From an uncultured Chthonomonadaceae bacterium (GTDB lineage Bacteria; Armatimonadota; Chthonomonadetes; Chthonomonadales; CAJBBX01): DNA of 64,000 bases. The DNA is taken from positions 16,276-80,275 of the forward strand of contig CAZFLM010000021.1 of the NCBI GenBank assembly GCA_964519955.1, given 5' to 3'. Below are positions 8,267 through 47,539 of the stretch, in pieces (position 1 is the stretch's first letter; every line of letters starts with the position of its first letter). The position numbers and the translations under genes are program-made. The notes under the pieces are model-generated. The model was given only the letters and a program-made list of their open reading frames with translations, was not told where the DNA came from and ran no database searches.

Positions 8267-8295
8267 GGCTGCCGGCAATGGTGCATGAGCGCTGT

Positions 8296-8323
8296 GGTGG
8301 GACGGGCGTCCCTGCCCGTCCAG
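8296..8323. repeat. REP-like hairpin, family A copy 1
   Basis: ggtgggacgggcgtccctgcccgtccag; 26/28 identical to 47815-47842. Confidence 0.65.
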
Positions 8324-8350
8324 TACGACCCATCGGTAGGTCGGGCTAAC

Positions 8351-10804: not shown

Positions 10805-10869
10805 CCCTGACGCCGGCGACTCCCTGTCCTCCGTCTATCCTCTGACGCACCACAGCCGGCCGTGAGGAG
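10805..10869 (+). promoter_or_regulatory. Duplicated upstream block, copy 2 (candidate ECF-sigma promoter)
   Basis: TGACGC-N18-CGTCTA; same 31-bp core and RBS segment as copy 1. Confidence 0.6.
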
Positions 10870-10877
10870 TGCATCCC

Positions 10878-13460
10878 ATGCCTGAGATCGATCCCCCGAT
10901 GGACGAGCTGCCGGACCTGCCGGGAGGTCTCTTCGGCGAGCCGGCGAGTGACGACGAGCGCCTGGCCGAGGCGGTGATCGAAGGCAAGCTGGACGAGGTC
11001 CGCAGGCTCCTCGACGCGGGCGCTGACCCGAACGCCAACCGCAAGTTCCTCGGGCCGCCTCTCTCGATCTGCGCAAGCGGGCCGGCGCATGCGCCGATTG
11101 ATCGCATGCTGCGCAGGCCCGGCCGCATCCCGGGCTTCCCGCCGCCTGGTAGTTCGCCGGAAGAGGGCCTGAAGGCGATGAGCAAGCTCCTCCAGTCGCA
11201 CACGCCGCAGCAGATGCAGGGGAACCGCCGCAGGGCGCGCGACAAGGCGAGGCGCAGCGCGGACCTCGGGCGCAAGAGGCCGCCGGACGAGACGCGCCAT
11301 CTGGAGGTCGCGAAGCTCCTGCTGGAACGCGGCGCGAACGTGGCCGCACGCGGCGAGATCGAGGGACAGACGGCCCTGCACGATGCGGCCCGGAGCGGGT
11401 GTGCGCGCATGACGGCGCTGCTCCTCGACCATGGCGCCGACATCGAGGCGGAGGACAAGAGCGGCAAGACGCCGCTGATGCTCGCCACCGAGGAGTGCAA
11501 GATCCACGTCGTGCGAGTGCTGCTGGAGCGAGGCGCGGACGCGATCAGACGCGGAACAGACGGCCACGCCCCCATGCACTCGGCCGCATTGGGAGGCAGC
11601 AAGCGCATCCTGGCCATGCTCATCGAGCGCGGCGCCGACGTGAACGCTGCCACGGATGCCGGCACGACACCGCTGCTGATCGCCCAGATGCGGCAGTATC
11701 CCGACATTGTGAAGCTTCTGGAGCGTGCCGGGGCGCGCGTGGGCTATCTGGAGGCGGTGGTGCGTGACGACAGCGCACTGGCCGACGAGTTGGAGCGCGG
11801 GTTGCCCACGGACCGACATCCGAGTTGGGGCTCACCCGTCCTGGAGTGGGGCATCCGCCAGGGCCGCGTGGACATCCTGAAACGTGTGCTCGGCGTCGGC
11901 GTGTCGGCGAACGGGCTGACCTCGAACAAGAACAGCACCCCGCTCATGCTGGCCGCGATGCATGGGTCGCCGGACGTGGTGCGGGCGCTGCTCGAGGCCG
12001 GCGCCGACCCAAACGCGACGAGGGCCCGCGGGTTCATGCCGCTGACGTGGGCGGCCCGACGAGGCGACTCGGACACGGCCCAGCTCCTGCTGCAGCATGG
12101 CGCGGATCCGAACACCCCCGGATGCAACGTGGGTGGCGCCTTGCAGGGAGCCGCGTCGTCCGGCAGCATCGAGATCGTGCGGATGCTGCTCGACGCCGGC
12201 GCCAGTCCGGTTAGGGAGCACGACGGGTTGTCACCGGCCGTGTCGACGCTGATGATGGGCCACCACGAGATTCTGAAGCTCCTCTTCGAGCACGGCGCCG
12301 ACCCGCGCACTGCGTGCCACGGAAAGGTACCCATCGACGTGCTGCCGCGAGCCCTCGGTGATGCGCGCATGAAGGCCATCATCCAGGAAGCAGCGGGCAC
12401 CGACCTGCACGAGGCGGCGGCCGCCGGAGACGTCGAGCGCCTCCGATCCTTGCTCGCGGCCGGCCGCACCCCGGAGGCGCGCGACACGAAGGGACGGACT
12501 GCGCTCATTGCCGCGGTCGAGGCCGAGCAGAGGAGCGCGGCCGAGTTCCTTCTGGACCATGGCGCGGATGTGAATGGCCGGAGCGAGCACGGCCGAACTC
12601 CGCTGTCGGTGGCGGTCCGGGGCAACCAGATCGCGATCGCTAAGCTGCTGCTCGACCGCGGCGCCGACCCGGACCTGCCCGACCAGACATGCCAGACTCC
12701 GCTCGTAACCGCCGCGCTGTCGATGGTCGATGGGCGCCGCGAGTTCGTGGATCTACTGCGTTCACGGGGCGGCGTGGTTGGGATCGTGGAAGCGGCGGCG
12801 CTCGGTGACACCGACGAGGTGCTGCGCATGATCGACGCGGGCACACCCGCCGATACTCGCGTGCCCACGGGGCCGAGCGCCCTCTGCGCCGCCGCAGCCA
12901 CCGGCAACGACGCCCTCGTGGCGGCGCTTCTGGACCGCGGCGCGGACATCAACCTGCAGATCTGGTGGGGCCAGTGTGCGCTGAGTCAGGCGTCCGGACG
13001 CGGGCACCTGTCTACGGTCGCACTGCTGCTCGATCGCGGCGCCAACCCGAACGTCGAGGCGAAGTCCTGCAGCATGACGCCGCTCGGCTCCGCCGTCGTG
13101 ACCGGGCAGGCGGACATTGTGCGGTTGCTTGTGCAGCGCGGCGCTCGGATCGACATGGCGGACACCATGGGCCACACGATCGCGCACGAGGCGGCGATGA
13201 GCAAAGAGGGGGTCGCGATGGTGGGCCTCCTTGCGGAACTGGGGGCCAAGATGAGCGGCCACACTAAGGCCGGACTGACGCCCCTCATGATGGCCGCGAT
13301 GCTCAACCGCGTCGACGTGGTGAGAGCCTTCGTGGAGCACGGAGCCGATCCGAACGTGCGCGACCGCACGGGCAGCACGGCCCTCACCCACGCAGAGCGC
13401 ATGGCCAGAGGCCCTGAGGCGGCGGCTTACCTCAGGAAGGTCACCAAGAAGTCGAAGTAG
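10878..13460 (+). CDS. Ankyrin-repeat protein (paralog 2, 860 aa)
   Basis: GAGGAG RBS 8 nt before the ATG; long array of ANK repeats (GQTALHDAA, GKTPLMLA, GRTPLSVA, GLTPLMMAA). Confidence 0.93.
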   Translation: MPEIDPPMDELPDLPGGLFGEPASDDERLAEAVIEGKLDEVRRLLDAGADPNANRKFLGPPLSICASGPAHAPIDRMLRRPGRIPGFPPPGSSPEEGLKAMSKLLQSHTPQQMQGNRRRARDKARRSADLGRKRPPDETRHLEVAKLLLERGANVAARGEIEGQTALHDAARSGCARMTALLLDHGADIEAEDKSGKTPLMLATEECKIHVVRVLLERGADAIRRGTDGHAPMHSAALGGSKRILAMLIERGADVNAATDAGTTPLLIAQMRQYPDIVKLLERAGARVGYLEAVVRDDSALADELERGLPTDRHPSWGSPVLEWGIRQGRVDILKRVLGVGVSANGLTSNKNSTPLMLAAMHGSPDVVRALLEAGADPNATRARGFMPLTWAARRGDSDTAQLLLQHGADPNTPGCNVGGALQGAASSGSIEIVRMLLDAGASPVREHDGLSPAVSTLMMGHHEILKLLFEHGADPRTACHGKVPIDVLPRALGDARMKAIIQEAAGTDLHEAAAAGDVERLRSLLAAGRTPEARDTKGRTALIAAVEAEQRSAAEFLLDHGADVNGRSEHGRTPLSVAVRGNQIAIAKLLLDRGADPDLPDQTCQTPLVTAALSMVDGRREFVDLLRSRGGVVGIVEAAALGDTDEVLRMIDAGTPADTRVPTGPSALCAAAATGNDALVAALLDRGADINLQIWWGQCALSQASGRGHLSTVALLLDRGANPNVEAKSCSMTPLGSAVVTGQADIVRLLVQRGARIDMADTMGHTIAHEAAMSKEGVAMVGLLAELGAKMSGHTKAGLTPLMMAAMLNRVDVVRAFVEHGADPNVRDRTGSTALTHAERMARGPEAAAYLRKVTKKSK

Positions 13461-27459: not shown

Positions 27460-27791
27460 GCCGAGGAATCCTCCGGAGGGGCTACGACGAGGACTCCCGG
27501 CCCCGCCTGGTTCCATTATCACACACGGCGGCGCGGAGTCGGACGGGCGGCGTTCCGGCCTGGTCACCCCGAACCGGTGGTGCCGGCGAATGAATTCGCG
27601 CCTGAGAACGGCACGAAGTCCGCCGTCGCGGGCTCGAATGACCACGGCAACGTAGGTGCAGTGCCATGCACATGGCGCCGGGCCGGGCGCGCTCAATTCG
27701 GTGGGAGACATGCATGGCCCGTGCACGTCCGACAGGGAAGCGCGGCGTGGTGGTCGAACCAGTGCGCATCACTTCTCGGAAGGTGGCGCCC

Positions 27792-28487
27792 GTGACCGCT
27801 CAGCCTGGCTCCGATCCGCGACTGCCGGACTCCTCGTTCCTGCGAGACTGCGCGTTCGTGTGCGTCGACATCCAGCCGGCCGGCGGCGAGCCGGCGGGCG
27901 ACATCCCCGACGAGTGGAAGCGGGCCGGCATCACGCTGGAGGACGCGCGCGCCGCGGGCAGGTACGCCCTCGCGGTGGCGCTCCCGAACGCGCGGCGGGT
28001 TGCGGATGCCTGCCGCGGCCTCGGCCTGCCGATGATCTTCATCCACTGGGGCTTCCGCCTCAGGGACGGCATGGACCTCGCGCCCGCGATCCGCCAGTCG
28101 TTCCTGGAGCAGTTCGGCGAGGACGCCGCCAGGTGGCCGCACCACATCGAGGCGCCCGACTCCCGCCCGGCAGACGAGCTGGGCGTGCGCGAGGGCGAGT
28201 ACGTCATCGCCAAGTCGGACCAGGACGCCTTCACCTCGTCCAACATCGGATTCGTGCTGCAGAACCTGGGCGTGCGCAACCTGGTGTTCGTGGGCGGCCA
28301 CACCGGCGCCTGCCTGGGCAAGACCGCGGCGTCGGCGAAGCGCCTTGGCTACCGCATCCTGTGCGTCGAGGACGCAACCAACGACGCGGCCGAGCCGCGG
28401 CGCCTCCCGAACCTGCGCGCGACGGGCTACGACTTCGTCGTCACGACCGACGAGTTCGTGGCGCTGGCGCAGGCGGCCGGCGGGTAG
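27792..28487 (+). CDS. Isochorismatase-family cysteine hydrolase
   Basis: Asp-Lys-Cys triad in VDIQ, AKSDQDAF and GGHTGACL; then VEDAT. Confidence 0.88.
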   Translation: MTAQPGSDPRLPDSSFLRDCAFVCVDIQPAGGEPAGDIPDEWKRAGITLEDARAAGRYALAVALPNARRVADACRGLGLPMIFIHWGFRLRDGMDLAPAIRQSFLEQFGEDAARWPHHIEAPDSRPADELGVREGEYVIAKSDQDAFTSSNIGFVLQNLGVRNLVFVGGHTGACLGKTAASAKRLGYRILCVEDATNDAAEPRRLPNLRATGYDFVVTTDEFVALAQAAGG

Positions 28488-28552
28488 AAGGCATCGCTCG
28501 GCAGGAAGCGGGCGCGCGGATGGCGTACCAGTTGCGTGGAGGGCCACCCACG

Positions 28553-31144
28553 ATGGCGGAGACGCCGGTCGTCTTCATCAGCTACAGCCACCAAGACCCG
28601 CAGTGGCGCGACTGCGTCACGGACCTGCTCGCGTCGATGCGGCGCTCCGCCGTGTGGAACGACCGCGCCCTCGAAGCCGGGGAAGAGTGGCGGCAGCAGA
28701 TCATGGACGCCATCGGAGTCGCCCGCGCCGCCGTGCTGCTGGTCTCCAAGCCGTTCCTCGCGTCCGCGTTCATCCGCGATGTCGAGTTGCCCGCGCTGCT
28801 CGCCCGCCACATCCCCATCCTCGCGGTGTTCGTCGGCCCGACGACCGCCGCGACGCGCGGATCGCTGGGCGCCCTTCAGGGCGTCAACGACCCGGCGCGC
28901 CCGCTCTGCGAGGCCGATGCCGAGGAAGGGGTGCGCGTTGCCGCGCGCCTACAGGAGGCCATCCTCAAGGCCCTGGGGATGCCCGATGCGCCCACCATCG
29001 GCAACCTGCCCTACGGCACCATCGGCACGCTGTTCAAGGGGCGCGAGGGCGTGTTGGGGGAGATGGAGCGGCGCTTGCAGCCCGACGCGCGCGTGCTGAT
29101 CCGGCCCACCACGCTCTATGGGGCGGGCGGCATCGGCAAGACGCGGCTCGCCGTCGAGTACGCGCTGCGGCACGCAGGCGAGTTCACCGCGCTGCTCTTC
29201 GTGGGCGCGGACAGCCCGGCGAATCTGCGCCGCAATCTGGCCGACCTCTGCGGGCCGGGCGTGCTGGACCTGCCGGAGCAGGAGACGCCCGAGGAGGCCG
29301 CGCGCGTCGAGGCGGTCCTGCGGTGGCTGGCTGGGCACCCCGGGTGGCTCCTCATCCTGGACAACGCGGACACGCCGGACGCCGCCGCCGAGGTGGAGCA
29401 GCTCTTCCCGCGGCTGACGGGCGGGCGGACCATCGTGACGTCGCGGCTGGCGAACTGGAGCGCGGGCACGGAGCCGCTGGAGCTGGACGTGCTGGACCCG
29501 GACGCCGCCGCCGCGTTCCTGCTGGAGCGCACCGCCCGCCGCCGCCGCACGCCCACCGACGACGCGGACGCGCGGGCGCTGGCCCATGACCTCGACGGCC
29601 TCGCGCTGGCCCTGGAGCAAGCAGGGGCGTACATCGACACGAAGCGGCTGGCTCTGCCTGCGTACCGGGAGCTGTGGGCGCGGCACGACCGGAAGGTGCG
29701 CGAGTGGCGCGACCCGCGCCTGACGAACTACCCGCGCAGCGTCGCCACGACGTGGCTCACCACGATGGCCCAGCTCAGCCGCGGCGCCCTGTCCCTCCTG
29801 CGCCTGCTGAGTTGGCTCGCGCCGGACCCGATCCCGCTCTCACTCATCGCCGAGCAGGAGCAGGACGCCCTCGCCGAGTTGGCGGGCTACTCCCTCGTGA
29901 AGCTCGAAGGCGACACCCTCCGCGTCCACCGCCTTGTGCAGGAGGTCACGCGTGACCGGCCGTCGGCCCGGCAGCAAGCCAGGTCGCTGCGCGCGGCGCT
30001 GGAGCGGGTGAACGGGGCCTTCGTGGGCAAGCCGGACGACGTCCGCAACTGGCCGGCGCTTGAGCCCTTGCAGCCTCACGGCGCCGCGGTTGTCCGGGCG
30101 GCCGACGCTCAGCGGATGGGAGAGCCGACGGCGCGGCTGATGAACCAACTATCTCTGCTCCTTCAGGCCAAGGCGCTGTACTCCGAGGCGGAGCCGCTGA
30201 TGCGGCGGGCGCTGGCGATCCGTGAGCAGAGCGGCGGGCCTAACCACCCTAGTGTGGCGGTATACCTGAACAACCTCGCAATGCTCCTTCGGGGCACGTA
30301 CCGCCTGGCAGAGGCGGAGCCGCTGATGCGCCGGGCGCTGGCGGTCAACGAGGGGAGGTGCGGACCGGACCACCCTAACGTCGCCATCCGCCTGAGCAAC
30401 CTGGCGATCCTGCTCTACGCCACGAACCGCCTGGCGGAGGCGGAGCCACTGATGCGCCGGGCGCTGGCCATAGACGAGGCGAGCTACGGGCCGGAGCACC
30501 CCAACGTCGGCACAGGCCTCAGCAACCTCGCGATGCTCCTTCGGGGCACGAACCGGCTGGCGGAGGCGGAGCCGCTGATGCGTCGGGCGCTGAAGATCGA
30601 CGAGGCGAGCTACGGGCCTGACCACCCGATGGTAGCCATCCGCCTGAACAACCTGGCGGACCTCCTCTACGCCACGAACCGCCTGGCGGGGGCGGAGCCG
30701 CTGATGCGCCGGGCGCTGGCCATCGACGAGACGAGTTACGGGCGGGAGCACCCCGGCGTGGCAGTAGACCTGAGCAACCTGGCGCAGCTCCTCACGGCCA
30801 CGAGCCGGCTGGCGGAGGCAGAGCCGCTGATGCGCCGGGCGCTGGCCATCGACGAGGCGAGCCACGGGCCGGAGCACCCCGACATAGCAGTACGCCTCAA
30901 CAACCTCGCTCGCCTCCTCCAGGGCACGGACCGCCTGGCGGAGGCGGAGCCGCTGATGCGAAGGCACGTCGTGATCTTCGCGGTGTTCCGCGCGCGGAAT
31001 GGCCACGAGCACCCACACTGGTCGGGGGCGTGCCAGAATTACCTCCTGCTGCTCCTCGACATGGGCCTGAGCGAGGCGGAGGCGGCGCGCAAGGTGGCGG
31101 AGGCGGAGGCGGAGGGGTCGGCGCTCGGGGGCGGATCGGGCTGA
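28553..31144 (+). CDS. TIR - NB-ARC/STAND NTPase - TPR protein (bacterial NLR-like), 863 aa
   Basis: TIR: VFISYSHQD, WND..L.AGEEW, LVSK.FL.S.FI.DVELP. Walker A GAGGIGKT; Walker B LLILDN; GLALALEQAGAYI; MH(R)LVQ-like VHRLVQ; TPR_10/12-type repeats. Confidence 0.92.
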   Translation: MAETPVVFISYSHQDPQWRDCVTDLLASMRRSAVWNDRALEAGEEWRQQIMDAIGVARAAVLLVSKPFLASAFIRDVELPALLARHIPILAVFVGPTTAATRGSLGALQGVNDPARPLCEADAEEGVRVAARLQEAILKALGMPDAPTIGNLPYGTIGTLFKGREGVLGEMERRLQPDARVLIRPTTLYGAGGIGKTRLAVEYALRHAGEFTALLFVGADSPANLRRNLADLCGPGVLDLPEQETPEEAARVEAVLRWLAGHPGWLLILDNADTPDAAAEVEQLFPRLTGGRTIVTSRLANWSAGTEPLELDVLDPDAAAAFLLERTARRRRTPTDDADARALAHDLDGLALALEQAGAYIDTKRLALPAYRELWARHDRKVREWRDPRLTNYPRSVATTWLTTMAQLSRGALSLLRLLSWLAPDPIPLSLIAEQEQDALAELAGYSLVKLEGDTLRVHRLVQEVTRDRPSARQQARSLRAALERVNGAFVGKPDDVRNWPALEPLQPHGAAVVRAADAQRMGEPTARLMNQLSLLLQAKALYSEAEPLMRRALAIREQSGGPNHPSVAVYLNNLAMLLRGTYRLAEAEPLMRRALAVNEGRCGPDHPNVAIRLSNLAILLYATNRLAEAEPLMRRALAIDEASYGPEHPNVGTGLSNLAMLLRGTNRLAEAEPLMRRALKIDEASYGPDHPMVAIRLNNLADLLYATNRLAGAEPLMRRALAIDETSYGREHPGVAVDLSNLAQLLTATSRLAEAEPLMRRALAIDEASHGPEHPDIAVRLNNLARLLQGTDRLAEAEPLMRRHVVIFAVFRARNGHEHPHWSGACQNYLLLLLDMGLSEAEAARKVAEAEAEGSALGGGSG
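30185..30960 (+). repeat. Coding tandem repeat, 126-bp period (42-aa TPR)
   Basis: gaggcggagccgctgatg-like anchors at 30185, 30311, 30437, 30563, 30689, 30815 and 30941. Confidence 0.95.
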
Positions 31145-31225
31145 CGCGTTCGGGGAACCGGCCCGCCGCGGAGGACATACCCCGCCTCGCCACGAACCTG
31201 GCGGCGTCACGCCAAGGAGGACGCC

Positions 31226-34159
31226 ATGCGCTTTGCCTGCCGCCGGATCCTGCTCGCCGCCGCCCTGCTGTTCCTCGCCGCACCGCTTGCCCGGCCTCAG
31301 CCCGCGCCTTCCGGCATCGCCCAGAGCACGCTGGCCGAGGTGGCCGCGCCCGCGAAGCTGCCGCCCGGCGTCTACACGCAGGCTGCGCGGTGGAGCGCCA
31401 CGCAGTTCGGGCACATGACCGGCACGCGGCTGGAGGACCCGGACGCGCAGGGCGGGGTGGCCTGGACCGGCGAGGCGTCGCTCACGGCCACCTCGGGGCC
31501 GCTGCTGTATGGCCCGTACGCCGAGCTGCCCGCCGCCGACTACGTTGCGTTCTTCCGCGTCAAGCTCGCGGGCGACATCGGCGACGAGAGCATCGCCACG
31601 CTCGACGCGTGCGTCGGGAACGGGGCGAGCACGCTGGCCCAGCGCGACGTCTCGCCGGCCGACCTGGCGCGCGGGCGCTACGTGCAGGTGGCGCTCGCGT
31701 TCCGCTCGCCGGGCGGCCGCCTCGAGTGCCGGCTCCACTGGCAGGCCACGACCTCGCTCACGGTGGACGGCGTCACTCTCTATCGCCGCGAGGGGCCGCC
31801 CGTGGACAGCAGCGTGCCGATGGTCGAGCAGCCGTCGTCGACCGGGGCGCTGAAGGGCCTGAAGTACGCCCCGCCGCGCCCGCCGTTCGAGGGCATCTTC
31901 CCGCGCTCCAGCAAGCCGTCCGCCAACCTCACCGTCTGCGACGTGCGCGGCAAGCCCGCCGACGTGCAGTTCCTGGCCGTCTCGCTGCAGGGCCTCGTCA
32001 ACCGTTCCACGCCTCGCGTCTACTGCCTGCTCAACGGCGAGGACCCGTTCTGGCTCGACTGGCTCAAGAAGTCGAACCGCGTCGCCGAGACGGACACCGC
32101 CGCCGATGCGCTCGCGCTGCTGGAGAAGTACCGCGGCGCGGCCAAGGGGATGATCGTCACCGACCCGGCGCTGCCCGCCACGCGCAACGTCGCGACGATG
32201 ATGGCGGGGGTGATGGACGGCGCCATCGTCTCGCCGCGCCTGGCGGCTGTCGTCAAGCTGCCGGTCCTCGCCGACCTGCGCGGGCGGTGGAAGCAGAACG
32301 CCGACGCCTACCAGTGGGCCCACGACACGCTCTGGCCCAAGCTCAACCACTTCGCGGCCGCGTGCCTCTGGCCGTCCGACGCGGGCCTGCGCGACTACCT
32401 GATCCAGCACCGCATCCCCGTCTTCTGGCTGCCCGGCCGCATCGACGCCGCGAAGCCCTACGCCAACGCCGCCGCCGAGCTGAAGGTCGCGGAGGAGATG
32501 TTCGCGCGCATGCCGGCCAACGTGCCGATGATGGGCTACTCCTGGGCGGGCGAGAACATCGGCATGGGCGAGGGGCCCGGCGTCGGGCTGATGGCGGAGT
32601 TCGGCAAGTACCTGGTCGGCTCGCCAGGCCTGAGCAACGTGAGCGTCCACTCCGGCTACCCGAACCCGATCCGCCGCCAGCCCGCCGCGAAGGCGCCGCC
32701 GATGCAGCAGGACAAGGTTTACTACTCGTTCCTCATCTCCGACGGCGACAACCTGCCGGTCATCGAGATCAGCAACTGGCCGCAGCTCTGGCGCGACCCG
32801 ACGCGCGGGAAGCTGCCGCTGGCGTGGACCATCTCGCCCTCCTCGTCCATCCTGCTGCCGGACATCGTGGATTACTACTACTCGACCGCGAGCCCCAACG
32901 ACACGTTCATGTGCGCGGTCTCCGGCGTCGGCTACACGTACCTGCAGCTCTACGGCAAGCGCTACACCCAGCCGAGCGCGGTCTACGACGGGTTCCTCGA
33001 TCAGACCGCGCGCTACATGAAGGCGATGGACCTGCGCACCATCAACCCGTCCGGCGTGAGCGCGAAGGAGATCGCCCGCTACGCCGAGCGCATCCCCGGC
33101 CTCGGCGGCATCTTCGCCGACTACGGGAAGAACGTCGGCACCTACCAGGAGGCGACGACCGTCACGTCCGGCAACGTGCCGGTGTTCCACGCGGTGACGG
33201 GGTGGGAGCCGAAGGGCAACCGCGAGGAGCAGATCGCCAACATCGTCGCGCAGGTGAAGGCCATCACCCCGGCCACGCGGCCCGCGTTCCTGCACGTGTT
33301 CATCTGCAACTGGTTCTTCGACCTGCCCATGCTGAAGGAGATCCAGGACCGGCTGGGGCCGGACTACGTGGCGGTTTCCCCGGACAACCTGGCCGCGCTG
33401 TGCAAGCACGACATGCGGCGGCTGGCGCTCCACGTGCAGGCGCCGGTCACCGTCGGCGGCATCGAGGGGCGTCCGGTGCGCTACGCGGTGACGCTGCGCA
33501 ACCTGACCGCGAAGCCGATGCCGCTCCGCCTCGCTCTGCATGGCGCCGGCTCGCTCCTCGTCAGCCCGGCGCAGATGACCCTCGCGCCCGCGCAGGTGCT
33601 GCAGGCGGTCGTGAGCGGCAAGGCGTCGACGCGCACCGTGACGCTGAGCGTGAAGGGGCCGTTCGGAGCGCGCCAGTACGTCACGGGGGTGATGCTCGCC
33701 GGGCTCCGCGAGATGATCGGGACGCCGCCGCCTGCCTCCGCGCACTACGAGGCGACGTTCGAGGCGGAGGCGCTGCCGCACATCGTCGGCGACGAGGTGG
33801 AGGAACCAACCGCCAGCGGTGGGAAGGCGCGCGCGGCCGTGCAGGGGCAGACCAAGCCGGGGCACATCTCCTACGGCCCGTACCGCGCCTACCCGGCCGG
33901 CAAGTACGTCGCCCTCTTCCGCGTGAAGCGCACGGGCGAGGGCGGCGGCGTGGCGTGCGTCCTCGACGCGACGGTGGCCGGCGCCGCGAAGTCGCTGATC
34001 GAGCGGCCCGTGCCCGCATCGCAGCTCCCGCTCGGCGAGTGGAAGACGGTGGTGCTCCCGTTCACCCACCCCGGCGGCTCGCTGGAGACCCGCGCGGTCT
34101 GGCCCGGCAGCGTGTCGCTCATGATCGACCGGATCGACCTGTACACCGTGGGGAAGTGA
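31226..34159 (+). CDS. Secreted GxGYxYP-family putative glycoside hydrolase with related CBM-like domains at both ends
   Basis: Signal peptide; SLQGLVNR..PRVY, FLISDGDN, P.AWTISP, SGVGYTY; YGPY..PA..YVA.FRVK occurs at both termini. Confidence 0.8.
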   Translation: MRFACRRILLAAALLFLAAPLARPQPAPSGIAQSTLAEVAAPAKLPPGVYTQAARWSATQFGHMTGTRLEDPDAQGGVAWTGEASLTATSGPLLYGPYAELPAADYVAFFRVKLAGDIGDESIATLDACVGNGASTLAQRDVSPADLARGRYVQVALAFRSPGGRLECRLHWQATTSLTVDGVTLYRREGPPVDSSVPMVEQPSSTGALKGLKYAPPRPPFEGIFPRSSKPSANLTVCDVRGKPADVQFLAVSLQGLVNRSTPRVYCLLNGEDPFWLDWLKKSNRVAETDTAADALALLEKYRGAAKGMIVTDPALPATRNVATMMAGVMDGAIVSPRLAAVVKLPVLADLRGRWKQNADAYQWAHDTLWPKLNHFAAACLWPSDAGLRDYLIQHRIPVFWLPGRIDAAKPYANAAAELKVAEEMFARMPANVPMMGYSWAGENIGMGEGPGVGLMAEFGKYLVGSPGLSNVSVHSGYPNPIRRQPAAKAPPMQQDKVYYSFLISDGDNLPVIEISNWPQLWRDPTRGKLPLAWTISPSSSILLPDIVDYYYSTASPNDTFMCAVSGVGYTYLQLYGKRYTQPSAVYDGFLDQTARYMKAMDLRTINPSGVSAKEIARYAERIPGLGGIFADYGKNVGTYQEATTVTSGNVPVFHAVTGWEPKGNREEQIANIVAQVKAITPATRPAFLHVFICNWFFDLPMLKEIQDRLGPDYVAVSPDNLAALCKHDMRRLALHVQAPVTVGGIEGRPVRYAVTLRNLTAKPMPLRLALHGAGSLLVSPAQMTLAPAQVLQAVVSGKASTRTVTLSVKGPFGARQYVTGVMLAGLREMIGTPPPASAHYEATFEAEALPHIVGDEVEEPTASGGKARAAVQGQTKPGHISYGPYRAYPAGKYVALFRVKRTGEGGGVACVLDATVAGAAKSLIERPVPASQLPLGEWKTVVLPFTHPGGSLETRAVWPGSVSLMIDRIDLYTVGK

Positions 34160-41449: not shown

Positions 41450-44239
41450 CTACCGCGAGACGCGGATCGGCCCCCACCGCGTCGCGGCTGTGCTGCCCTC
41501 CGGCTCGATGTCGGTGAACACGAGGCGCGTCGAGGGTACCTGGTCCATGGGCACCGCGCCCGTGTCCCACCACGGCATGTCCCACGGGCCGTCCGCGTCG
41601 CGCCGCATCACCACGCGCCAGGTCGTCCGAGTGATCTCCGCGCGCACGTGGTAGGTGTCGCCGGGCTTGATCTCGGGGCTCACGGCGCGCTGCTTCCAGC
41701 CCTTCGCGCCGTCGGTCCACGTGCCCGCCAGGTCGGCGGAGGACTGCGTGTGCACCGCGAAGTGGTCGTGCGAGGCCGCCAGCGCGAACTTAAACGAGAT
41801 GTCGGTCGGCTTATCCGCCGCGGCGACGAGCTGGCTGTCGACGCCGAGCTTCACGGGCGTGAGTTCGAACTCCAGGACGAGCGGCTTCGCGGCGTCGAGC
41901 CGGAACGCCTCGCGGCTGAGGACGCCGCAGAGCTTGCCCCATCCGCCGGGCGCCTGCGTCTCCAGGTGGCCGTCCGCGACGCGCGGGTGCCCCAGCACCT
42001 CCCAGCGCGCGGTGTCGAGCGAGGCGAAGGGCTCGTCCAGTACGACGCGGCCGGCTGTCGCGCCGGGGCTCGCCGGGCCGTGCTCGGCCAGGCGCTGGAA
42101 GTGGTCGGCGATGGCGGTCACGTCCTGCAGCACGGAGCGGAAGCCGGTCGGGTCGCCCTGCGAGTAGAGCGGCGACACCTGGCGCAGGATGTCGGCGACC
42201 TCCTTCTCGTGCCGGCGCCAGTGGTCCGCCTGCGCCTTCACGAGCCGGCGCGAGTTCGCCAGGGCCATGCCCGGCGCCTTCGCCAGCAGCGACTGCCCGT
42301 CGATCATCAGCATCTGCCGCTCGGCGTGGTGGCCGATCTTCCGCGCGGCCAGCTCCAGGTCAGCGAGTTCCGCCCTCCGGCCCACGGCGCTCCGCATCGC
42401 GTTTAGTTCGGCCTCGATGGCTGTGGCTTCCTCGTCGATCTCCTCCGCCTTCGACCGAATTGCGGCTAGCTCCTTGCCCGGCCTCCCCTCGCGGTCCATC
42501 AGCTCGCGGCAGCGCTGCCAGGCGCCGAGCACCGTGTTGCCGATGTAGCCGGCCTCCTGCGTGTCGACGACGCCGACCACGTCGTGCAGCGTCTGGTTCG
42601 CCAGCTCCAGCGCGGACTTGCACCGGTCGAGGCGCTCGTAGGCGGTGGCCAGGCGCTCGGTCGCCTCGTCGGTGCGCGCGTCGTAGTAGTGGCGCACGAA
42701 TGCGCGGGTGAACGCGGGCTGGTACTCGTCGAGAGTCTCATCCGGCAGGCGCCACGTGCACAGCGCGTTCTGCGCGAAGCCGTACCACAGGGAGTCGAAC
42801 GCCCGCACGCGGTGCTTGGAGAAGGAGGCTGTCGCGATGCCCAGGAACTCGCGCGATGGGTGCTTCTTCTGGGCGGCCGCCGCGTCGCGCGCCATCCCGT
42901 CGATGTTGAGGATGCCCGTCTGCTCCATGGAGGGCCACGACTTCTTCGGGTCCTCCGGCGAGAGGTCGGCGAGGTAGAAGCAGTGGTTGTAGATGGCCGA
43001 GATGCCGAAGATGTCGTAGCCCCGGTCCATCAGCCCACCGATGCCGGCGTAGTCGGGCCAGTACTTCCAGAAGCCCATCACCGTGTTCTTGGCGATGCGC
43101 TCCAGACCGACCCAGTCCCGCCCCGGTCCGTACATGTAGAACTCGTCGCCCCAGATCATCGGCCGCACGGGGCGGTGCATCTCCTGCGCCAGCTCCTCGA
43201 CCGCCCGGATGCACTTCTCCGCGTGTCCGAGCAGGAGGTCGCGCACCGTCTCGCCCTTCTCGACGCGCGCCTTGCACGCCGGGCAGTAGCGCCCCTGCCA
43301 CTGCATGTCGATCTCGCTGCAGCCGACGCCGATGACCGGTGCGTCGGGGAACCAGGTCAGCAGATCGCGATAGAGCGCCTTGATGAAGGGGTAGACGTCC
43401 GGGTTCGAGGGGCAGATGAGCCCGGGCGCGCTGGCCTCGCGGTACTTCGCGCCGGCCTCGTTCGCCCAGACCAGCTCGTACGCCTGCGCCAGCGTCTGCA
43501 GCGAGGGCACCATCGTCACATGCCAGCGCTTGGCCTCGGCGAAGACGGCCTGGCAGTCCTCGCGCGAGAGCGTGCCGGCGTCCGCACAGCCCGCGAACGA
43601 GGCGTAGGGGAACAGGTTGTAGCACTCGACGACGAGCGTGTTCATCTTGAACTGCGCCAGCCGCCGGATCTGCTCGCAGAGATAGTCGCGCGAGACGATA
43701 CGCCCGTATCGCTCCTGGCCGCCCTCGATGTAGATGCCGCGCATCCGCATGTCCGGCGAGTCGCGCACGACCACGCACGGCAGCGCGCCGCCCTCCGCCG
43801 ACATCCGCGCGATCTGCCGCAGCGTCTCCGCAGCGTAGAGCAGGCCCCGCGCCGTTCGCGCCAGCGCCGCCGCGCCCTCCGGCCCGATCGCCAGGACGTA
43901 GCCCTCCTCTGCGATGCCCGCGTCCGGCAGCCCCGGCAGATCGGCGCCCTTGCCGATGGTGAACGCAATGCCTGGCGCCGCCGACGCGCGGGCCTTGGCG
44001 CCCATCGCCGTCAGCGCGCCGCGCAGCACCTCGCGGCAGGCGTCGTGCTCCGCCCCCGCGGGTGTCGCGAACGTGACCGCGCGGCCGGACAGCGGCAGTG
44101 AGCCCGCCTCGACCCGCAGCTCGCGCGGCCTCGGGATGAGGCCTCTTGTCAACGTATCGGCATCCATCGTCTGCGCTCCCGCACCAACGGTCATAGCCCA
44201 GGCCAGCGCCGCCGCCCAGACCACACTCATCCGCGGCAT
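41450..44239 (-). CDS. Secreted GH20-like protein (domain 2, TIM barrel, C-terminal lectin-like domain), 929 aa
   Basis: GAGGGA RBS; LIPRP, EGYVL, GLLYAAETLRQ, DSPDMRMRG, KMNTL, MIWGDE; catalytic motif reads GCSE. Confidence 0.8.
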   Translation of the reverse strand: MPRMSVVWAAALAWAMTVGAGAQTMDADTLTRGLIPRPRELRVEAGSLPLSGRAVTFATPAGAEHDACREVLRGALTAMGAKARASAAPGIAFTIGKGADLPGLPDAGIAEEGYVLAIGPEGAAALARTARGLLYAAETLRQIARMSAEGGALPCVVVRDSPDMRMRGIYIEGGQERYGRIVSRDYLCEQIRRLAQFKMNTLVVECYNLFPYASFAGCADAGTLSREDCQAVFAEAKRWHVTMVPSLQTLAQAYELVWANEAGAKYREASAPGLICPSNPDVYPFIKALYRDLLTWFPDAPVIGVGCSEIDMQWQGRYCPACKARVEKGETVRDLLLGHAEKCIRAVEELAQEMHRPVRPMIWGDEFYMYGPGRDWVGLERIAKNTVMGFWKYWPDYAGIGGLMDRGYDIFGISAIYNHCFYLADLSPEDPKKSWPSMEQTGILNIDGMARDAAAAQKKHPSREFLGIATASFSKHRVRAFDSLWYGFAQNALCTWRLPDETLDEYQPAFTRAFVRHYYDARTDEATERLATAYERLDRCKSALELANQTLHDVVGVVDTQEAGYIGNTVLGAWQRCRELMDREGRPGKELAAIRSKAEEIDEEATAIEAELNAMRSAVGRRAELADLELAARKIGHHAERQMLMIDGQSLLAKAPGMALANSRRLVKAQADHWRRHEKEVADILRQVSPLYSQGDPTGFRSVLQDVTAIADHFQRLAEHGPASPGATAGRVVLDEPFASLDTARWEVLGHPRVADGHLETQAPGGWGKLCGVLSREAFRLDAAKPLVLEFELTPVKLGVDSQLVAAADKPTDISFKFALAASHDHFAVHTQSSADLAGTWTDGAKGWKQRAVSPEIKPGDTYHVRAEITRTTWRVVMRRDADGPWDMPWWDTGAVPMDQVPSTRLVFTDIEPEGSTAATRWGPIRVSR

Positions 44240-44266
44240 CCGCGTCCCTCCACATTGCCCGGCACC

Positions 44267-44638
44267 CGGTGGCGACGGAGCGACACCCTCCAGCCCAGCC
44301 CGGCGTGCGTTGCGCACCAACCTGTGGGGCGCGCCCTCCGCGGCGCGCCGGGTCCTTGCATGCGCCCGCACGACCCAGTCCGGAGGACGATCGGCCGTAG
44401 GCCAGCCTGCCGGGGGTCTTGTACCCCCGGAACCGAGCGGTGGCGACGGAGCGCCACCCTCCAGCCCAGCCCGGCGTGCGTTGCGCACCAACCTGTGGGG
44501 CGCGCCCTCCGCGGCGCGCCGGGTCCTTGCATGCGCCCGCACGACCCAGTCCGGAGGACGATCGGCCGTAGGCCAGCCTGCCGGGGGTCTTGTACCCCCG
44601 GAACCGAGCGGTGGCGACGGAGCGCCACCCTCCAGCCC
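44267..44638. repeat. 171-bp intergenic tandem repeat (2 units plus 30 bp) built of hairpins; REPIN/BIME-like
   Basis: Unit starts at 44267, 44438 and 44609; contains ggtggcg-acggag-cgccacc, ggcgcgcc-ctccgc-ggcgcgcc and ccgggggt-cttgt-acccccgg. Confidence 0.93.
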
Positions 44639-44645
44639 GTCGCCG

Positions 44646-46082
44646 CTACTTCACCTCCACCACCACGCACTTCCCCGGCGAGGGCGGTACCTTCACTGCC
44701 TTGCCGCCGACCCTTACCTCCACGTCGCCGGGCGTCTCGACGAAGTCGGTGCGGCGCAGCAGCACGCGGTTGCCCAGCCGCAGGCCGGAGACAACGGTGC
44801 CGGCATTCGCGGGTACATCGAACGAGATGGGCTTGCCCTTGTCCAGGAACTCGCCGTACTCCTGCGCGGCCGCCCAGACGGAGTGCAGCAGCTTCACCTC
44901 GGCGGCGTTCTCCTCGCTCGGGCACCAGAGGAAGAACGTGGCGTGGCCCCGCAGGAGCATGTGCCACAGCAGCTCCTGGTAGGCCCACTCCGTCATCTGC
45001 GGTGCGGCGGGCGCGCGGGATGCCTCGGTCGTGTGCCAGTGGACGAACGTGACGATGGGCGTCCTGGCGGGTGTGTGCTGGGCGGCGTTCGTGGCGACCT
45101 TGAGCATGTTGTAGAACCAGCGGTAGTCGCCCGGCTCGAAGTCGTACCACCCGTACGTCCACGCCCACGTGTAGACGACCGGCATCGCGAACGTGTAGCC
45201 CGCCCGCTCGAACTCCTTCGCCCACGGGCGGTAGGGCGCGCCGTGATCGCTCAGGGCAGGGCCAGGCTGCCCGCGCGGCTCGAAGTAGTCGTACCAGTAG
45301 CGATAGCCGTCGTGCGGGTAGACGGCGTAGTTGCCGACCAGGCACTTCGGGAAGCGCTGGAGGAGGGGAGCCGCGTACACCTCGCGCTCCAGATCGCCGC
45401 GCAGGTCGCGCATCGCCTTCTGGAACGCGGCGAAGTCGTCGAGGTGCGGGAGGTGCTCGCGGCAGCGGGCGCACCGCTTGCTGCTCTCCCACGCCCCGTT
45501 CCACTCGATGGGGCCGTCGATCTCCCAGTCCGCGAAGCAGAAGCCGACCTCGACCCCGGCCTTGCGGTAGGCGTCCGCGAACCACTCGATGCGCTCGCGG
45601 ATGGCCGGCTTGCGGTGCTCGATGGCGAATGGGCAGCCCATGTCCGGCTTCCCGCCGAACGAGGTGTCCCAGAAGGACTTGCCCGCCGCGTCGACGTGCG
45701 CCGTCTCGGGGGTGCCGTCGTAGAACGAGTAGAGACAGCCGGACGCATCGACGCCCACCGGCACGCCGAGCTTCTTCTGCGCCCGCGCGATCGGCAGGGC
45801 CTGCTCCAAGCTGGCCTCGCGGTGGGCGGCATCCCAGCGGCACACGATGCCCACGCCGCGGCGGTCCAGCTCGCGCACCAGCTCCTCGGCCTGCTCGTCC
45901 GTCAGCTTGCCGGGGTCCATGGCGGGCCAGAGGTAGAGGGGCAGGCGCTTCCCGCGCGGGTGCTTCAGCGGCTCGGTGTTCTCCAGCACGGTGCGGATGT
46001 GCTCGGGCCAGGGCATGGACTTGGTCTCCTTCGCGGGTGTCTGCGCCATCGCTGCGACGGCGGCCATCAGGGCGAGGATCAC
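44646..46082 (-). CDS. Secreted hypothetical protein, possible glycosidase-like TIM barrel
   Basis: Short signal peptide; start overlaps the upstream stop (ATGA-type); DWEIDGP motif; coding-like codon use. Confidence 0.7.
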   Translation of the reverse strand: MILALMAAVAAMAQTPAKETKSMPWPEHIRTVLENTEPLKHPRGKRLPLYLWPAMDPGKLTDEQAEELVRELDRRGVGIVCRWDAAHREASLEQALPIARAQKKLGVPVGVDASGCLYSFYDGTPETAHVDAAGKSFWDTSFGGKPDMGCPFAIEHRKPAIRERIEWFADAYRKAGVEVGFCFADWEIDGPIEWNGAWESSKRCARCREHLPHLDDFAAFQKAMRDLRGDLEREVYAAPLLQRFPKCLVGNYAVYPHDGYRYWYDYFEPRGQPGPALSDHGAPYRPWAKEFERAGYTFAMPVVYTWAWTYGWYDFEPGDYRWFYNMLKVATNAAQHTPARTPIVTFVHWHTTEASRAPAAPQMTEWAYQELLWHMLLRGHATFFLWCPSEENAAEVKLLHSVWAAAQEYGEFLDKGKPISFDVPANAGTVVSGLRLGNRVLLRRTDFVETPGDVEVRVGGKAVKVPPSPGKCVVVEVK

Positions 46083-47539
46083 TTGCCGCCCTCCGGCGCC
46101 TCGAACCGGCGCGACGTGGCGTACACGTGCACGTCGAAGCCGCGGAGGCCGTCGCGCAGGGCCCCGCCCTGGACCGTCAGCTCCTCGTCCGCGCCGAGGC
46201 GATAGAGCGTGCGCCCCTCCAGCGCGACCGGCAGCCCGGTCAGCCGGAAGGCACGCCCCATGATCCGCTCGTTCGCCACGATCAGCACCCAGTCGTCGCC
46301 CACCTGGCGCAGCGTGGCCACGTAGCCGCCCTGGTCCGCGGACGACGGGTTGTCCTCGACGACCAGCTTCGGCGCCGGCTTCACCTCGGGCGCGACGAAG
46401 GCGGGCTCCAGGGCGCGCAGCTCCCTGGCGATGCGCAGGAGGTCGCGCCAGAGCGGCGTGTCGAGCGTCTTCGCGCCGCCGTCCGGCTCGTCGAACGCGT
46501 ACGGCGTGCCCCAGTAGAGGATGCCGGCCGCGCCATGGAGCAGCGCGTCATACGCCATGAAGCGCGTCTCCTGCCAGTTCGGCCGCCGCCCGACGCGCTC
46601 GTCCTTGTCGCGGTCGGCCTTCTCGGCGAGATCGCGCCAGGCGAAGCCCTGCAGCACCATGAGGCACGGCTTGCCAGGGGCCGAGGCGCGCATGCGGTCC
46701 GTGTACGCGCCGACAGAGGCCGGGGTCATGTCCAGCAGGTCGCTGTGCCCGGTGCCCATGTTCGCGGGGATCGGGTAGATGTCGCAGCCGACCGCGTCCG
46801 CGGCCTTGCCGTAGAGGGTGAGCGAGGGCATCGAGTTGCGCGGCGCGTGGTTCAGCCAGACCAGGTGCTTCGGGTCGGCCTTGTGCACGGCGTGGATGCC
46901 CTCGTTCAGGCCCTCGCCGACCTTCGCGGAGCGCTCAGCCGCGCCGCCGATGACGACGCCGGGCTTCGGGTCCGTGCCGCCGACCGCCTGCCAGAACGCC
47001 TTGCGCTCCGTCTCGAACCGGTCGGTCAGGCCGCGGTTGAGCATCTCCCAGGCGTGCGCGATCCTGCGGTTCGCTGCCTCGGGATTGGCCGATGCTGCGG
47101 CGGCCTTGCGCATCGCTGGGAACACCTCGCTCTCGATGACGCCGCCCGGGCCCCACGTGCAGTTCCAGAGCGCCTCGTCCGGGCCTTCCCAGAGCAGCAG
47201 CGCCGGGTGGTCCTTCAGCGAGCGCACGCGGTTGAGCAGCTTCTGCTCGCGGGCGGGGCGATCGGCGCTCAGGTCGAGGTCCTCCCCGAGGTTGACCCAC
47301 GCCCTCGCGCCCGCGCCGGCGACCCGGTCCACCGCCGCCTTGTCGGCCGCGCACTGAATGAGGTTGAAGCCCGCCGCGACCGCGTCCTTCAAGCGCGCGT
47401 CGTCGCTCGGGTCCTCATACAGCCCTAGAATCAGCCCCGGCTTGCCATCGATGTTCAGCATGGACACTCTCCCAATCCGCGTCGCCGGCGTCGTCTGCGC
47501 GAGCACCGCACCGGCAGCCAGGCACATGAATGCGAGCAT
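46079..47539 (-). CDS. Secreted hypothetical protein, glycosidase-like TIM barrel
   Basis: Signal peptide; GFNL, LLLWEGPDE, WLNHAP, GCDIYP, MVLQGF, LLHGAAGILYW. Confidence 0.7.
   Translation of the reverse strand: MLAFMCLAAGAVLAQTTPATRIGRVSMLNIDGKPGLILGLYEDPSDDARLKDAVAAGFNLIQCAADKAAVDRVAGAGARAWVNLGEDLDLSADRPAREQKLLNRVRSLKDHPALLLWEGPDEALWNCTWGPGGVIESEVFPAMRKAAAASANPEAANRRIAHAWEMLNRGLTDRFETERKAFWQAVGGTDPKPGVVIGGAAERSAKVGEGLNEGIHAVHKADPKHLVWLNHAPRNSMPSLTLYGKAADAVGCDIYPIPANMGTGHSDLLDMTPASVGAYTDRMRASAPGKPCLMVLQGFAWRDLAEKADRDKDERVGRRPNWQETRFMAYDALLHGAAGILYWGTPYAFDEPDGGAKTLDTPLWRDLLRIARELRALEPAFVAPEVKPAPKLVVEDNPSSADQGGYVATLRQVGDDWVLIVANERIMGRAFRLTGLPVALEGRTLYRLGADEELTVQGGALRDGLRGFDVHVYATSRRFEAPEGGK

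Follow-up and report, generated by a model that had tools for sequence, protein, structure and literature searches.

Introduction

In fungal NOD-like receptors (NLRs), the tetratricopeptide repeat (TPR), ANK, and WD repeats show high internal conservation (HIC), hypervariable positions on the concave side, repeat-number polymorphism, and positive selection (PMC4986451). Internally conserved TPR repeats were stated for bacterial NB-ARC/TPR proteins in the Dyrka et al. 2020 preprint, and Ament-Velásquez et al. 2026 (PMC13449251) extended the pattern to all domains of life, including TIR-bearing bacterial examples. Additionally, the detection of phage proteins by STAND proteins with TPR sensors has been established experimentally for the Avs families (e.g., Avs7; PMC13581612). 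TPR and STAND proteins are not mentioned in the repeat-protein survey of Altae-Tran et al. 2020. Here, we analyzed a stretch of 64,000 nucleotides (contig CAZFLM010000021.1 of GenBank assembly GCA_964519955.1, positions 16,276 to 80,275; hereafter the window, in whose numbering all coordinates are given), focusing on one gene for a TIR–NB-ARC–TPR protein and on the tandem TPR array encoded toward its 3' end. This array is probably the C-terminal sensor of a single-gene bacterial NLR-like receptor, with variable residues that line its groove and a surface that has been diversified across the family.

Domain architecture of the receptor gene

The encoded protein of 863 residues presents a tripartite order, with TIR_2 at residues 18-108, the NTPase at approximately 163-470, and the TPR region at 497-860. 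Its Pfam matches are TIR_2, NB-ARC/AAA_22, DUF7779, and, very strongly, TPR_10/TPR_12/TPR_NPHP3. This domain order, the motifs, and the structural neighbors described below establish that the protein is a bacterial NLR-like receptor combining TIR, NB-ARC, and TPR modules. The features of the gene are as follows.

28553..31144, + strand: complete TIR–NB-ARC(STAND)–TPR gene, 863 aa (open reading frame [ORF] and translation, Pfam domains, start of the database copy)
28565..28840, + strand: N-terminal TIR domain, residues 5-96 (Pfam TIR_2 E=4.8e-10, model fold)
29039..29962, + strand: STAND/NB-ARC NTPase with helical and winged-helix modules, residues 163-470 (motifs, Pfam, NCBIfam, Foldseek)
30041..30184, + strand: linker helix and degenerate "unit 0" that gives the first A-helix (ARLMNQLSLLLQAKALYS) (model, translation of the preceding 126-bp register)
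30185..30940, + strand: six regular 42-aa TPR units of the kinesin light chain (KLC) type (42PR) (Tandem Repeats Finder, translation, model)
30941..31132, + strand: degenerate seventh unit and C-terminal capping helices (EAEPLMRRHVVIFAVF…HEHP…NYLLLLLDMG…) (translation, family consensus)

An AlphaFold2 model built from 45 homologues reached a mean predicted local distance difference test (pLDDT) of 88 and a predicted template modeling score (pTM) of 0.76, with values of 93-98 in the TPR region. In this model, the TIR domain adopts a beta-alpha fold (pLDDT 71-84), and the PADLOC models that match it are ThsB (ThsB-like), SAVED-TIR, and bSEFIR. Glu78, in the motif RDVELP, is its putative catalytic residue. 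It aligns weakly (E=0.03-0.2 for the two alignments) with TIR-SAVED 7QQK, where its partner is the second Glu of REVE, and with AtTIR 3JRN, where it is displaced by one residue from the DEL Glu; the Glu residues named in these two proteins are catalytic.

The NTPase carries a Walker A motif (GAGGIGKT, residues 190-197), a Walker B motif (LLILDNAD, 266-273), a TSR motif (296-298), and an MHD-like His459 in RVHRLV. G190, G192, G193, G195, K196, D270, D273, T296, and H459 are invariant among 45 homologues. The Pfam NB-ARC score (20.7 bits) falls slightly below the 23.5-bit gathering cut-off, and a match to NCBIfam NF040586 spans profile positions 8-370, mainly the NTPase.

The TPR region comprises about eight hairpins of 42 residues, six of them regular. 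They are preceded by the linker and unit 0 helices (residues 497-519 and 526-539) and closed by cap helices at residues 795-816, 823-836, and 841-860, whose consensus EAEPLMRRALxIxxxFxxxTGxxHPxxxxxxxNYxxLL is kept across the 45 homologues. The Foldseek neighbors of the model are 6MFV (archaeal STAND-TPR), KLC TPR domains, the TIR-NLR RPP1, CED-4, NRC4, and the Podospora 42PR structure 4Y6C. In a sequence search of the PDB, the protein matched KLC1 at E=3.6e-35 and 4Y6C at E=6e-10.

An alternative ATG for the gene lies at 28520. The start at 28553 is favored by a GGAGG 9 nt 5' of the ATG and by the database copy P0001, which begins MAETPVV. The GC content at third codon positions (GC3) of the gene is 0.92 and matches that of adjacent genes, which indicates a native composition. 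Two other reading frames were discarded as high-GC artefacts: a 5' extension of the ORF to 27656, which reads as Arg-rich nonsense and overlaps the isochorismatase frame, and a long antisense ORF at 30149-34069 (−).

Structure of the repeat array

At 30185-30960, Tandem Repeats Finder reported a period of 126 bp with 6.2 copies, 78% matches, no indels, and a score of 829, together with alternative periods of 252 bp (82% matches) and 378 bp (80%). The array is the strongest tandem repeat in the window, except for an unrelated 171-bp duplication described below. Its units start at 30185, 30311, 30437, 30563, 30689, and 30815, and a 32-nt anchor, GAGGCGGAGCCGCTGATGCGCCGGGCGCTGGC, occurs six times with at most 3 mismatches, versus 0 times in 100 shuffles, and nowhere else in the 64-kb window. 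The original prediction, made from the nucleotide sequence, had described anchors recurring every 126 bp between 30185 and 30960, and both the recurrence and the start of the array agree with our results. The end of that span, however, runs 20 nt too far, since 30941-30960 is already the beginning of the degenerate seventh cap unit.

All units keep the reading frame of the gene and encode EAEPLMRRALA(I)xExxxGPxHPxVAxxL(N/S)NLAxLLxxTxRLA. Per 42-aa unit, 23 positions are invariant, 7 have one deviant unit, and the remaining 12 are more variable (13, 15, 17, 20, 23, 26, 27, 29, 33, 36, 37, and 39). Thus, the near-invariant scaffold with variation at fixed positions noted previously is real, including the SVAVY/NVAIR/NVGTG/MVAIR/GVAVD/DIAVR and M/I/M/D/Q/R series. 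The label of high identity that was attached to it is less apt: the repeats are genuine, but pairs of units share 74-86% of their nucleotides and 67-79% of their residues (mean 72.5%), below the >85% protein identity over at least 100 residues that defines HIC repeats (PMC4986451).

A codon-level peculiarity was found at unit codons 24-26, where codons ending in A or T (GTA, ATA, GCA, ACA) make up 8/18, compared with 17/234 in the rest of the array. This enrichment was identified post hoc (Fisher p=7e-5), against a genome GC3 of 0.92, and is absent from eight homologue arrays.

Variable positions and the predicted binding groove

The hypervariable unit positions are 13, 23, 26, 27, 33, 36, and 37, to which the window array adds variation at 15, 17, 20, and 39, while its units keep the Asn pair at 29/30 in the form S/N–N. 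In the other homologues, within-protein entropy peaks at positions 23, 26, 27, and 33 (~1.8 bits), followed by 36, 13, and 37. The variability profile of the window array correlates with this entropy profile (r=0.79, 119 other homologues), so the variable positions are a property of the family and are not peculiar to the window gene.

In the AlphaFold2 model, helix A corresponds to unit positions 22-37 and helix B to positions 41-42 plus 1-17 (pLDDT 93-98). Positions 23, 26, 27, 33, 36, and 37 all fall in helix A, and position 13 falls outside it. On the helix-A wheel, these six variable positions occupy one half, centred on the invariant Asn30, and the conserved hydrophobic positions 24, 25, 28, 31, 32, and 35 occupy the opposite half. 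The helical-wheel variability moment was 0.41, with a permutation p=0.03 for the family profile and p=0.11 for the window. In 42-residue TPR domains, the A helices line the concave groove (PMC5642895).

The groove of KLC1 provides a residue-level comparison, as its residues contact JIP1 or TorsinA peptides in crystal structures and its Asn pairs (29/30) hydrogen-bond the peptide backbone (PMC6214655, PMC3314626). KLC1 numbering was converted to unit positions by sequence alignment, the 42-residue period, and the register of the NN motif, the offset being inferred. The KLC1 peptide contacts reported in these two studies correspond to the following positions.

Unit position 13: KLC1 R327
Unit position 26: KLC1 K340
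Unit position 29: KLC1 N259, N301, N343
Unit position 30: KLC1 N302, N344, N386
Unit position 33: KLC1 V305, L347
Unit position 36: KLC1 R266
Unit position 37: KLC1 K309, N351

Consequently, five variable positions (13, 26, 33, 36, and 37) and the Asn pair coincide with peptide-contact sites of KLC1. By analogy with this structure, the variable residues most likely line a concave binding groove. The match in contacts and the role of the Asn pair in KLC1 further lead us to predict that the variable positions read side chains, with the Asn pair serving as a ladder that reads the backbone. The same arrangement was described in fungal NLR TPRs modeled on KLC2 by Dyrka et al. (PMC4986451). The variable recognition surface suggested in the original prediction is therefore supported by the family-wide recurrence of the positions, their shared helix-A face, and the KLC1 match. 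Since the residues fall on this face and match KLC1 contacts, helix geometry and homology place them neither in the core nor on the convex side, the two locations named as arguments against such a surface.

Selection at the variable codons

To avoid circularity, the seven hypervariable codons were defined from 119 other proteins. By the Nei-Gojobori method, the nonsynonymous rate (dN) at these codons was 0.97, while the scaffold had a synonymous rate (dS) of 0.39 and a dN/dS of 0.27. The ratio of dN at hypervariable codons to scaffold dS was 2.5, with a column bootstrap interval of 1.35-4.9 and 0.14% of replicates at or below 1. Because strong codon bias caps synonymous divergence, saturation levels were simulated; synonymous sites had reached 65% of saturation and nonsynonymous sites of the hypervariable codons 79%, giving a corrected ratio of 2.2. 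Four other arrays with low dS gave ratios of 2.2-3.9, and arrays with saturated dS gave values below 1, as expected. The dN/dS analysis that had been suggested as a check thus gave an excess of dN over dS (ratio of approximately 2.2-2.5), which favors diversifying selection at the variable codons within a small sample of 7 codons and 6 units.

Distribution and variation of the family

A search of 5.8 billion proteins retrieved the protein itself and, as the nearest other match, a full-length protein with 57% identity. More than 1,700 homologues share the same NTPase-TPR chassis, and the NTPase module alone is represented by 2,584 clusters at 50% identity with E<=1e-30 and 11,979 with E<=1e-10. 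Relatives in genomes, with 45-56% identity, belong to Deltaproteobacteria, Gammaproteobacteria, Acidobacteriota, Planctomycetota, Cyanobacteriota, Verrucomicrobiota, Bacteroidota, and others. Their N-terminal domains are interchangeable, with DUF4062 in many, TIR_2/TIR/SEFIR in at least 11, and Mrr_cat in four; such swapping is characteristic of NLR-like conflict proteins.

From the 120 best homologues, we extracted 1,071 ungapped 42-residue units; this set is biased, as the search favors proteins that share words with the query. Mean within-protein unit identity ranged from 44 to 88%, and the window protein (72.5%) ranked 62nd. Several homologues exceed the 85% HIC threshold, such as P0015 with a mean of 88%. 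The family consensus unit, EAEPLMRRALAIDEASYGPDHPNVAIDLNNLAQLLQATNRLA, is almost the same as the window scaffold, and the window units resemble those of other proteins (76-88%) as much as they resemble one another, in part a consequence of this bias.

Three further observations concern the homologues. In the same query-biased set (P0002-P0120, L001-L011), the scaffold consensus is kept at ~64% between proteins of at least 7 phyla, including helix B residues, and synonymous sites between homologue arrays are randomised despite the constrained scaffold. By analogy with KLC, helix B would be the convex side, and a constrained surface outside the groove could reflect autoinhibitory docking, contacts within an oligomer, or unit turnover together with horizontal transfer. 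In a Planctomycetota homologue (L007:7512-10683), the gene is divided into two ORFs and the spacing of units twice measures 251 bp where 252 bp would be expected, which suggests frameshifts, from either long-read indel errors or a pseudogene. At L011:3274-5421, a second DUF4062–STAND–TPR paralogue lies ~2 kb upstream of the matched gene on the same strand, and the two copies are close.

History of the array

Strings shared by alternate units had been interpreted as a 252-bp duplication of two repeats. Both strings are present (ATGCTCCTTCGGGGCACG is common to units 1 and 3, and CTCTACGCCACGAACCGCCTGGCG to units 2 and 4), but the units as a whole do not carry the signal. Units 2 and 4 are 86% identical; units 1 and 3 are 76% identical, which does not exceed the identity of unit 1 to any other unit. 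The lag-2 excess, assessed against all 720 unit orders, reached p=0.017 in the helix-A halves, compared with p=0.11 in whole units and p=0.71 in the helix-B halves, and no shared tract was globally significant. The helix-B halves instead group units 3, 5, and 6, at 90-94%. We therefore rejected a clean higher-order duplication of whole units, as the signal is confined to the helix-A halves, where it is an alternation of the states at variable positions 36-37 (RG / YA) in units 1-4. A lag-2 signal in helix A only and a different grouping in helix B indicate that the history of the window array is mosaic. Even TPR numbers are preferred in fungal NLRs (Dyrka et al.; PMC4986451), and this preference, together with 84-aa indels in homologues, makes two-unit events plausible in the family; none was demonstrated for the window array.

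At sites where window units have the same residue, the codon is also identical in 0.72 of cases, versus 0.56 expected from genome codon usage; between the window array and seven arrays of similar GC, the values were 0.46-0.55. The same was observed in all arrays examined, with 0.61-0.91 within and 0.34-0.57 between arrays, one related trio apart. Furthermore, the nearest neighbor in DNA of every window unit is another window unit. The within-array codon excess and these nearest neighbors show that the units of the array share descent or exchange more recent than their split from the sampled homologues. Silent sites are thus more alike within than between genes, as in concerted evolution, with a moderate effect. 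In addition, among ten homologue clusters at 90% identity, alleles that are 96-100% identical elsewhere have array gaps of exactly 42 or 84 aa, and one homologue allele lacks 252 residues of the array.

Within the window array, dS between units is ~0.4-0.5, and the best pairwise values of a Sawyer-type runs test were p=0.004 (units 1/3 and 3/4), uncorrected for 15 pairs. Variation in the population was explored in Logan contigs, which drop rare variants; the locus is present in four runs of one wastewater metagenome study, at 7-10x depth. Contigs with zero mismatches cover 29600-30724, 30245-30724, 30701-30850, and 30827-31400, and a piece at 30706-30861 has one mismatch. Two apparent "joints" in these data derive from contigs of ~155 nt with 31-nt anchors and are uninformative, and an exact-protein look-up of encoding contigs returned nothing recorded. 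Repeat-number variation in reads, which had been suggested as a check, was not seen in these four low-depth runs.

Taken together, the idea that recombination drives the variability stands differently at two levels. For the family, recombination-driven diversification is plausible and supported by the unit indels of homologues. For the window array, the sharing of codons supports it weakly, and the partial saturation of synonymous sites (~65%), the absence of a significant conversion tract, and the lack of variants in the four runs count against it. The window array is probably an older product of family diversification that is no longer homogenised.

Proposed function and alternative explanations

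In the model that we propose, the TIR domain would be the effector, presumably cleaving NAD+, and the NTPase, of the NB-ARC/AP-ATPase type, would act as switch and oligomerisation module. Along the groove, the Asn pairs would be arranged as a ladder and hydrogen-bond to an extended peptide through its backbone, the variable residues would form side-chain pockets, and the six regular units together would offer one asymmetric binding surface. A foreign protein or peptide, most likely phage-derived, would be bound in this groove; its binding would lift a TPR-mediated autoinhibition of the NTPase, which would then oligomerise. The clustered TIR domains would thereby be activated, NAD+ depleted or converted, and the infected cell arrested or killed. 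In evolution, the family would have diversified this surface as whole 42- or 84-aa units were added or removed and as residues at the variable positions were rapidly replaced. Our data show the architecture and its motifs, where the variable positions lie and that they recur in the family, the excess of dN over dS, the codon sharing, and the unit indels of homologues; the ligand class, the activation steps, the NADase activity, and the role in defense are what we infer.

Several observations weigh against the array being a diversified sensor of this kind. The units are only 67-79% identical in protein, with synonymous sites ~65% saturated, and the Sawyer-type test found no globally significant tract among window units (best global p=0.28). 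The contigs of the four Logan runs contain no repeat-number or sequence variant, and the unit indels of homologues, which come mostly from short-read assemblies, could partly be repeat collapse. The dN/dS estimate is based on 7 codons in 6 units, and the concave-face placement rests on homology and helix geometry. At the level of the gene, PADLOC-DB v2 recognises the TIR domain alone, and the NTPase and sensor match no Avs1-5, bNACHT, or other known model. Finally, the neighbors of the gene are metabolic (isochorismatase, a DUF1638–hydantoinase fusion, and glycoside hydrolases of the GxGYxYP, GH32, GH130, GH20, and melibiase types), and those of six homologues are mutually unrelated housekeeping genes that give no support for a defense island.

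Part of this evidence is shared by an explanation that we consider unlikely, in which the array is an old and static scaffold whose units, like those of kinesin light chain, each engage a different part of a single fixed partner. The variable positions would then be ordinary residues exposed in the groove, where each unit is under its own purifying selection or under relaxed constraint, with neither recombination nor ongoing diversification. Such a scaffold agrees with the DNA identity of 74-86% and the ~65% saturation of synonymous sites, with the lack of a globally significant conversion tract and of variants in the four runs, and with a protein that ranks only 62nd of 120 homologues in internal identity and whose units are as near to foreign units as to each other. 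It is harder to reconcile with a dN at family-defined variable codons above the synonymous rate (bootstrap lower bound 1.35), with a codon identity within the array (0.72) that exceeds both the usage expectation (0.56) and the between-array values, and with the gain and loss of whole units between close alleles of the family. A different function, which seems to us very improbable, would be that of the TIR–AP-ATPase–TPR component of an FxSxx-COOH / vWA-MoxR system, or another non-immune STAND regulator, with a groove that reads a self-encoded modified peptide. The match to NF040586, "FxSxx-COOH system tetratricopeptide repeat protein," reaches 307 bits, barely over the cut-off of 300; a TIR–AP-ATPase–TPR gene lies downstream of FxSxx peptide-processing systems (Kaur et al. 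2020; PMC7159879), and one homologue locus (L006) has a vWA-FHA neighbor. Nevertheless, the scanned ORFs of the window include no radical-SAM, peptide-maturation, vWA, or MoxR gene, in a scan that leaves room for ORFs without a Pfam match and for small peptide genes, and gene neighbors are not conserved across 80 homologue loci. Membership in the FxSxx-COOH system was therefore not adopted, given the marginal score of the hidden Markov model and the lack of partner genes among the scanned ORFs.

We give hardly any credence to the remaining explanation, that a targeted mutator (a diversity-generating retroelement) writes the variability or that the array is a mis-assembled chimera of TPR genes. 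The post hoc enrichment of A/T-ending codons at unit codons 24-26 could be read in this sense, but it does not recur in the homologue arrays. Likewise, other TPR genes in the same metagenomes have stretches of 30-45 nt in common with the array, yet independent Logan contigs from four runs tile it at essentially 100% identity and without indels. Neither a reverse transcriptase in the scanned ORFs nor a copy of the anchor outside the array, as a possible template repeat, was found, and the codon table shows variation that is not adenine-specific; on these grounds, a diversity-generating retroelement was rejected.

Returning to the sensor interpretation, a more speculative extension, which we regard as rather improbable, is that the arrays form a modular peptide code. 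In it, the Asn pair and ~6 variable residues of each unit would read about two peptide residues, and the code would be reprogrammed across phyla by insertion, deletion, and exchange of units. If true, the arrays would be a naturally occurring collection of programmable peptide binders, shared horizontally and coupled to a TIR death switch, in which the window array would be one fixed "word." More generally, the match with KLC1 provides a residue-level, testable prediction of the positions that set specificity in this receptor class, and suggests that such arrays could be mined or engineered as peptide binders.

Genomic neighborhood and other features of the window

An isochorismatase-family gene at 27666-28487 (+) ends 33-66 bp upstream of the start of the receptor gene on the same strand, and the two may be co-transcribed. 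The isochorismatase family includes nicotinamidases, which would be intriguing beside a TIR domain that cleaves NAD. The adjacency is probably a coincidence, because an isochorismatase-type neighbor occurs at 0 of 80 homologue loci. No flanking gene of the window locus recurs at these 80 loci, and the scanned ORFs of the window yielded no domain of the reverse transcriptase, radical-SAM, vWA/MoxR, or integrase type. The setting likewise lends no support to a defense island, with metabolic neighbors here and unrelated ones at homologue loci. The receptor gene is a stand-alone module.

The source organism is a bacterium of high GC content, sampled in wastewater. The nearest relatives of a glycogen phosphorylase encoded in the window are just 60-65% identical, which indicates a poorly sampled host lineage; several of them are labelled Armatimonadota, a link that we consider tentative.

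Three other features of the window were recorded. A gene at 10866-13460 (+) encodes an 864-aa ankyrin-repeat protein with very strong, consensus-like matches (Ank_2 338 bits, Ank 304 bits). Located 17 kb upstream of the TPR gene, it is another large solenoid-repeat protein; at the DNA level, the ankyrin repeats are not near-identical, with no Tandem Repeats Finder report at a score >=150. At 44267-44638, where a GH20-like ORF (41450-44650, −) meets the ORF at 44646-46547 (−), a 171-bp tandem duplication (2.2 copies, 99% identity) looks like either a very recent event or an assembly artefact. Finally, a gene at 8267-9268 (+), amid glycosyltransferase and glycoside-hydrolase genes, resembles APH(6)-type aminoglycoside/hydroxyurea-resistance kinases (PF04655 E=1e-40).

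Comparison with known systems

The locus adds one bacterial TIR–NB-ARC–TPR receptor to a family of thousands and does not represent a new kind of system. Its top full-length structural match is PH0952, an archaeal STAND-TPR protein (PDB 6MFV; Foldseek E=4e-12, TM 0.61 on target, 729 aligned columns), which differs in its sequence (14% identity), in the absence of a TIR effector, and in TPRs that are not internally conserved 42-residue units. Among solved structures, the best sequence match is the 42PR domain of kinesin light chain 1/2 (E=3.6e-35, 33-38% identity). Kinesin light chain and nephrocystin-3 have the HP…LNNLA…EAEPL unit in common with the window array, and the contacts of kinesin light chain with cargo peptides in its groove include the Asn pairs and positions 26, 33, 36, and 37. 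Unlike the window protein, however, kinesin light chain is an adaptor for a eukaryotic motor; its six repeats are fixed, conserved among orthologues, and free of unit turnover, and it has neither an NTPase nor a TIR domain.

With Avs and bNACHT proteins (PMC13581612), the receptor would share the logic of TPR sensing, relief of autoinhibition, oligomerisation, and activation of an N-terminal effector. Nevertheless, its NTPase matches no PADLOC model of those families, and Avs sensors are large, irregular, bilobed structures that envelop folded proteins, in contrast to arrays built of near-identical 42-residue units.

Bacterial NB-ARC/AP-ATPase–TPR proteins agree with the receptor in the order of domains, in the family of the NTPase (48-58% identity to the best homologues), and in having swappable N-terminal effectors and internally conserved TPR units. 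Among them, the window protein is distinguished by the lack of a close orthologue, its best full-length match being 57% identical. It also differs from the FxSxx TIR–AP-ATPase–TPR genes (Kaur et al. 2020; PMC7159879) in standing alone in a metabolic setting, where no peptide-processing or vWA-MoxR partners were found among the scanned ORFs.

The fungal HIC NLRs (Podospora anserina NB-ARC–TPR; 4Y6C/4Y6W; Dyrka et al. 2014, Marold et al. 2015), to which the original prediction compared the array, differ from it in several respects. The host is bacterial, the effector is a TIR domain instead of a HET, HeLo, patatin, or similar domain, and similarity to 4Y6C is modest (E=6e-10, 24% identity in structural alignment). 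Moreover, units with 67-79% identity lie under the >85% criterion, and the locus has no sign of current homogenisation or repeat-number variation. As a mechanism, the analogy is nonetheless apt. Both have an NB-ARC domain followed by 42-residue KLC-type TPRs, a near-constant scaffold with few hypervariable positions modeled onto the concave helix-A surface, and dN>dS at these positions, and apparent repeat-number polymorphism is found here in the homologue clusters. The design of the fungal receptors, a constant scaffold with a hypervariable groove, is thus also present in a diverged bacterial array.

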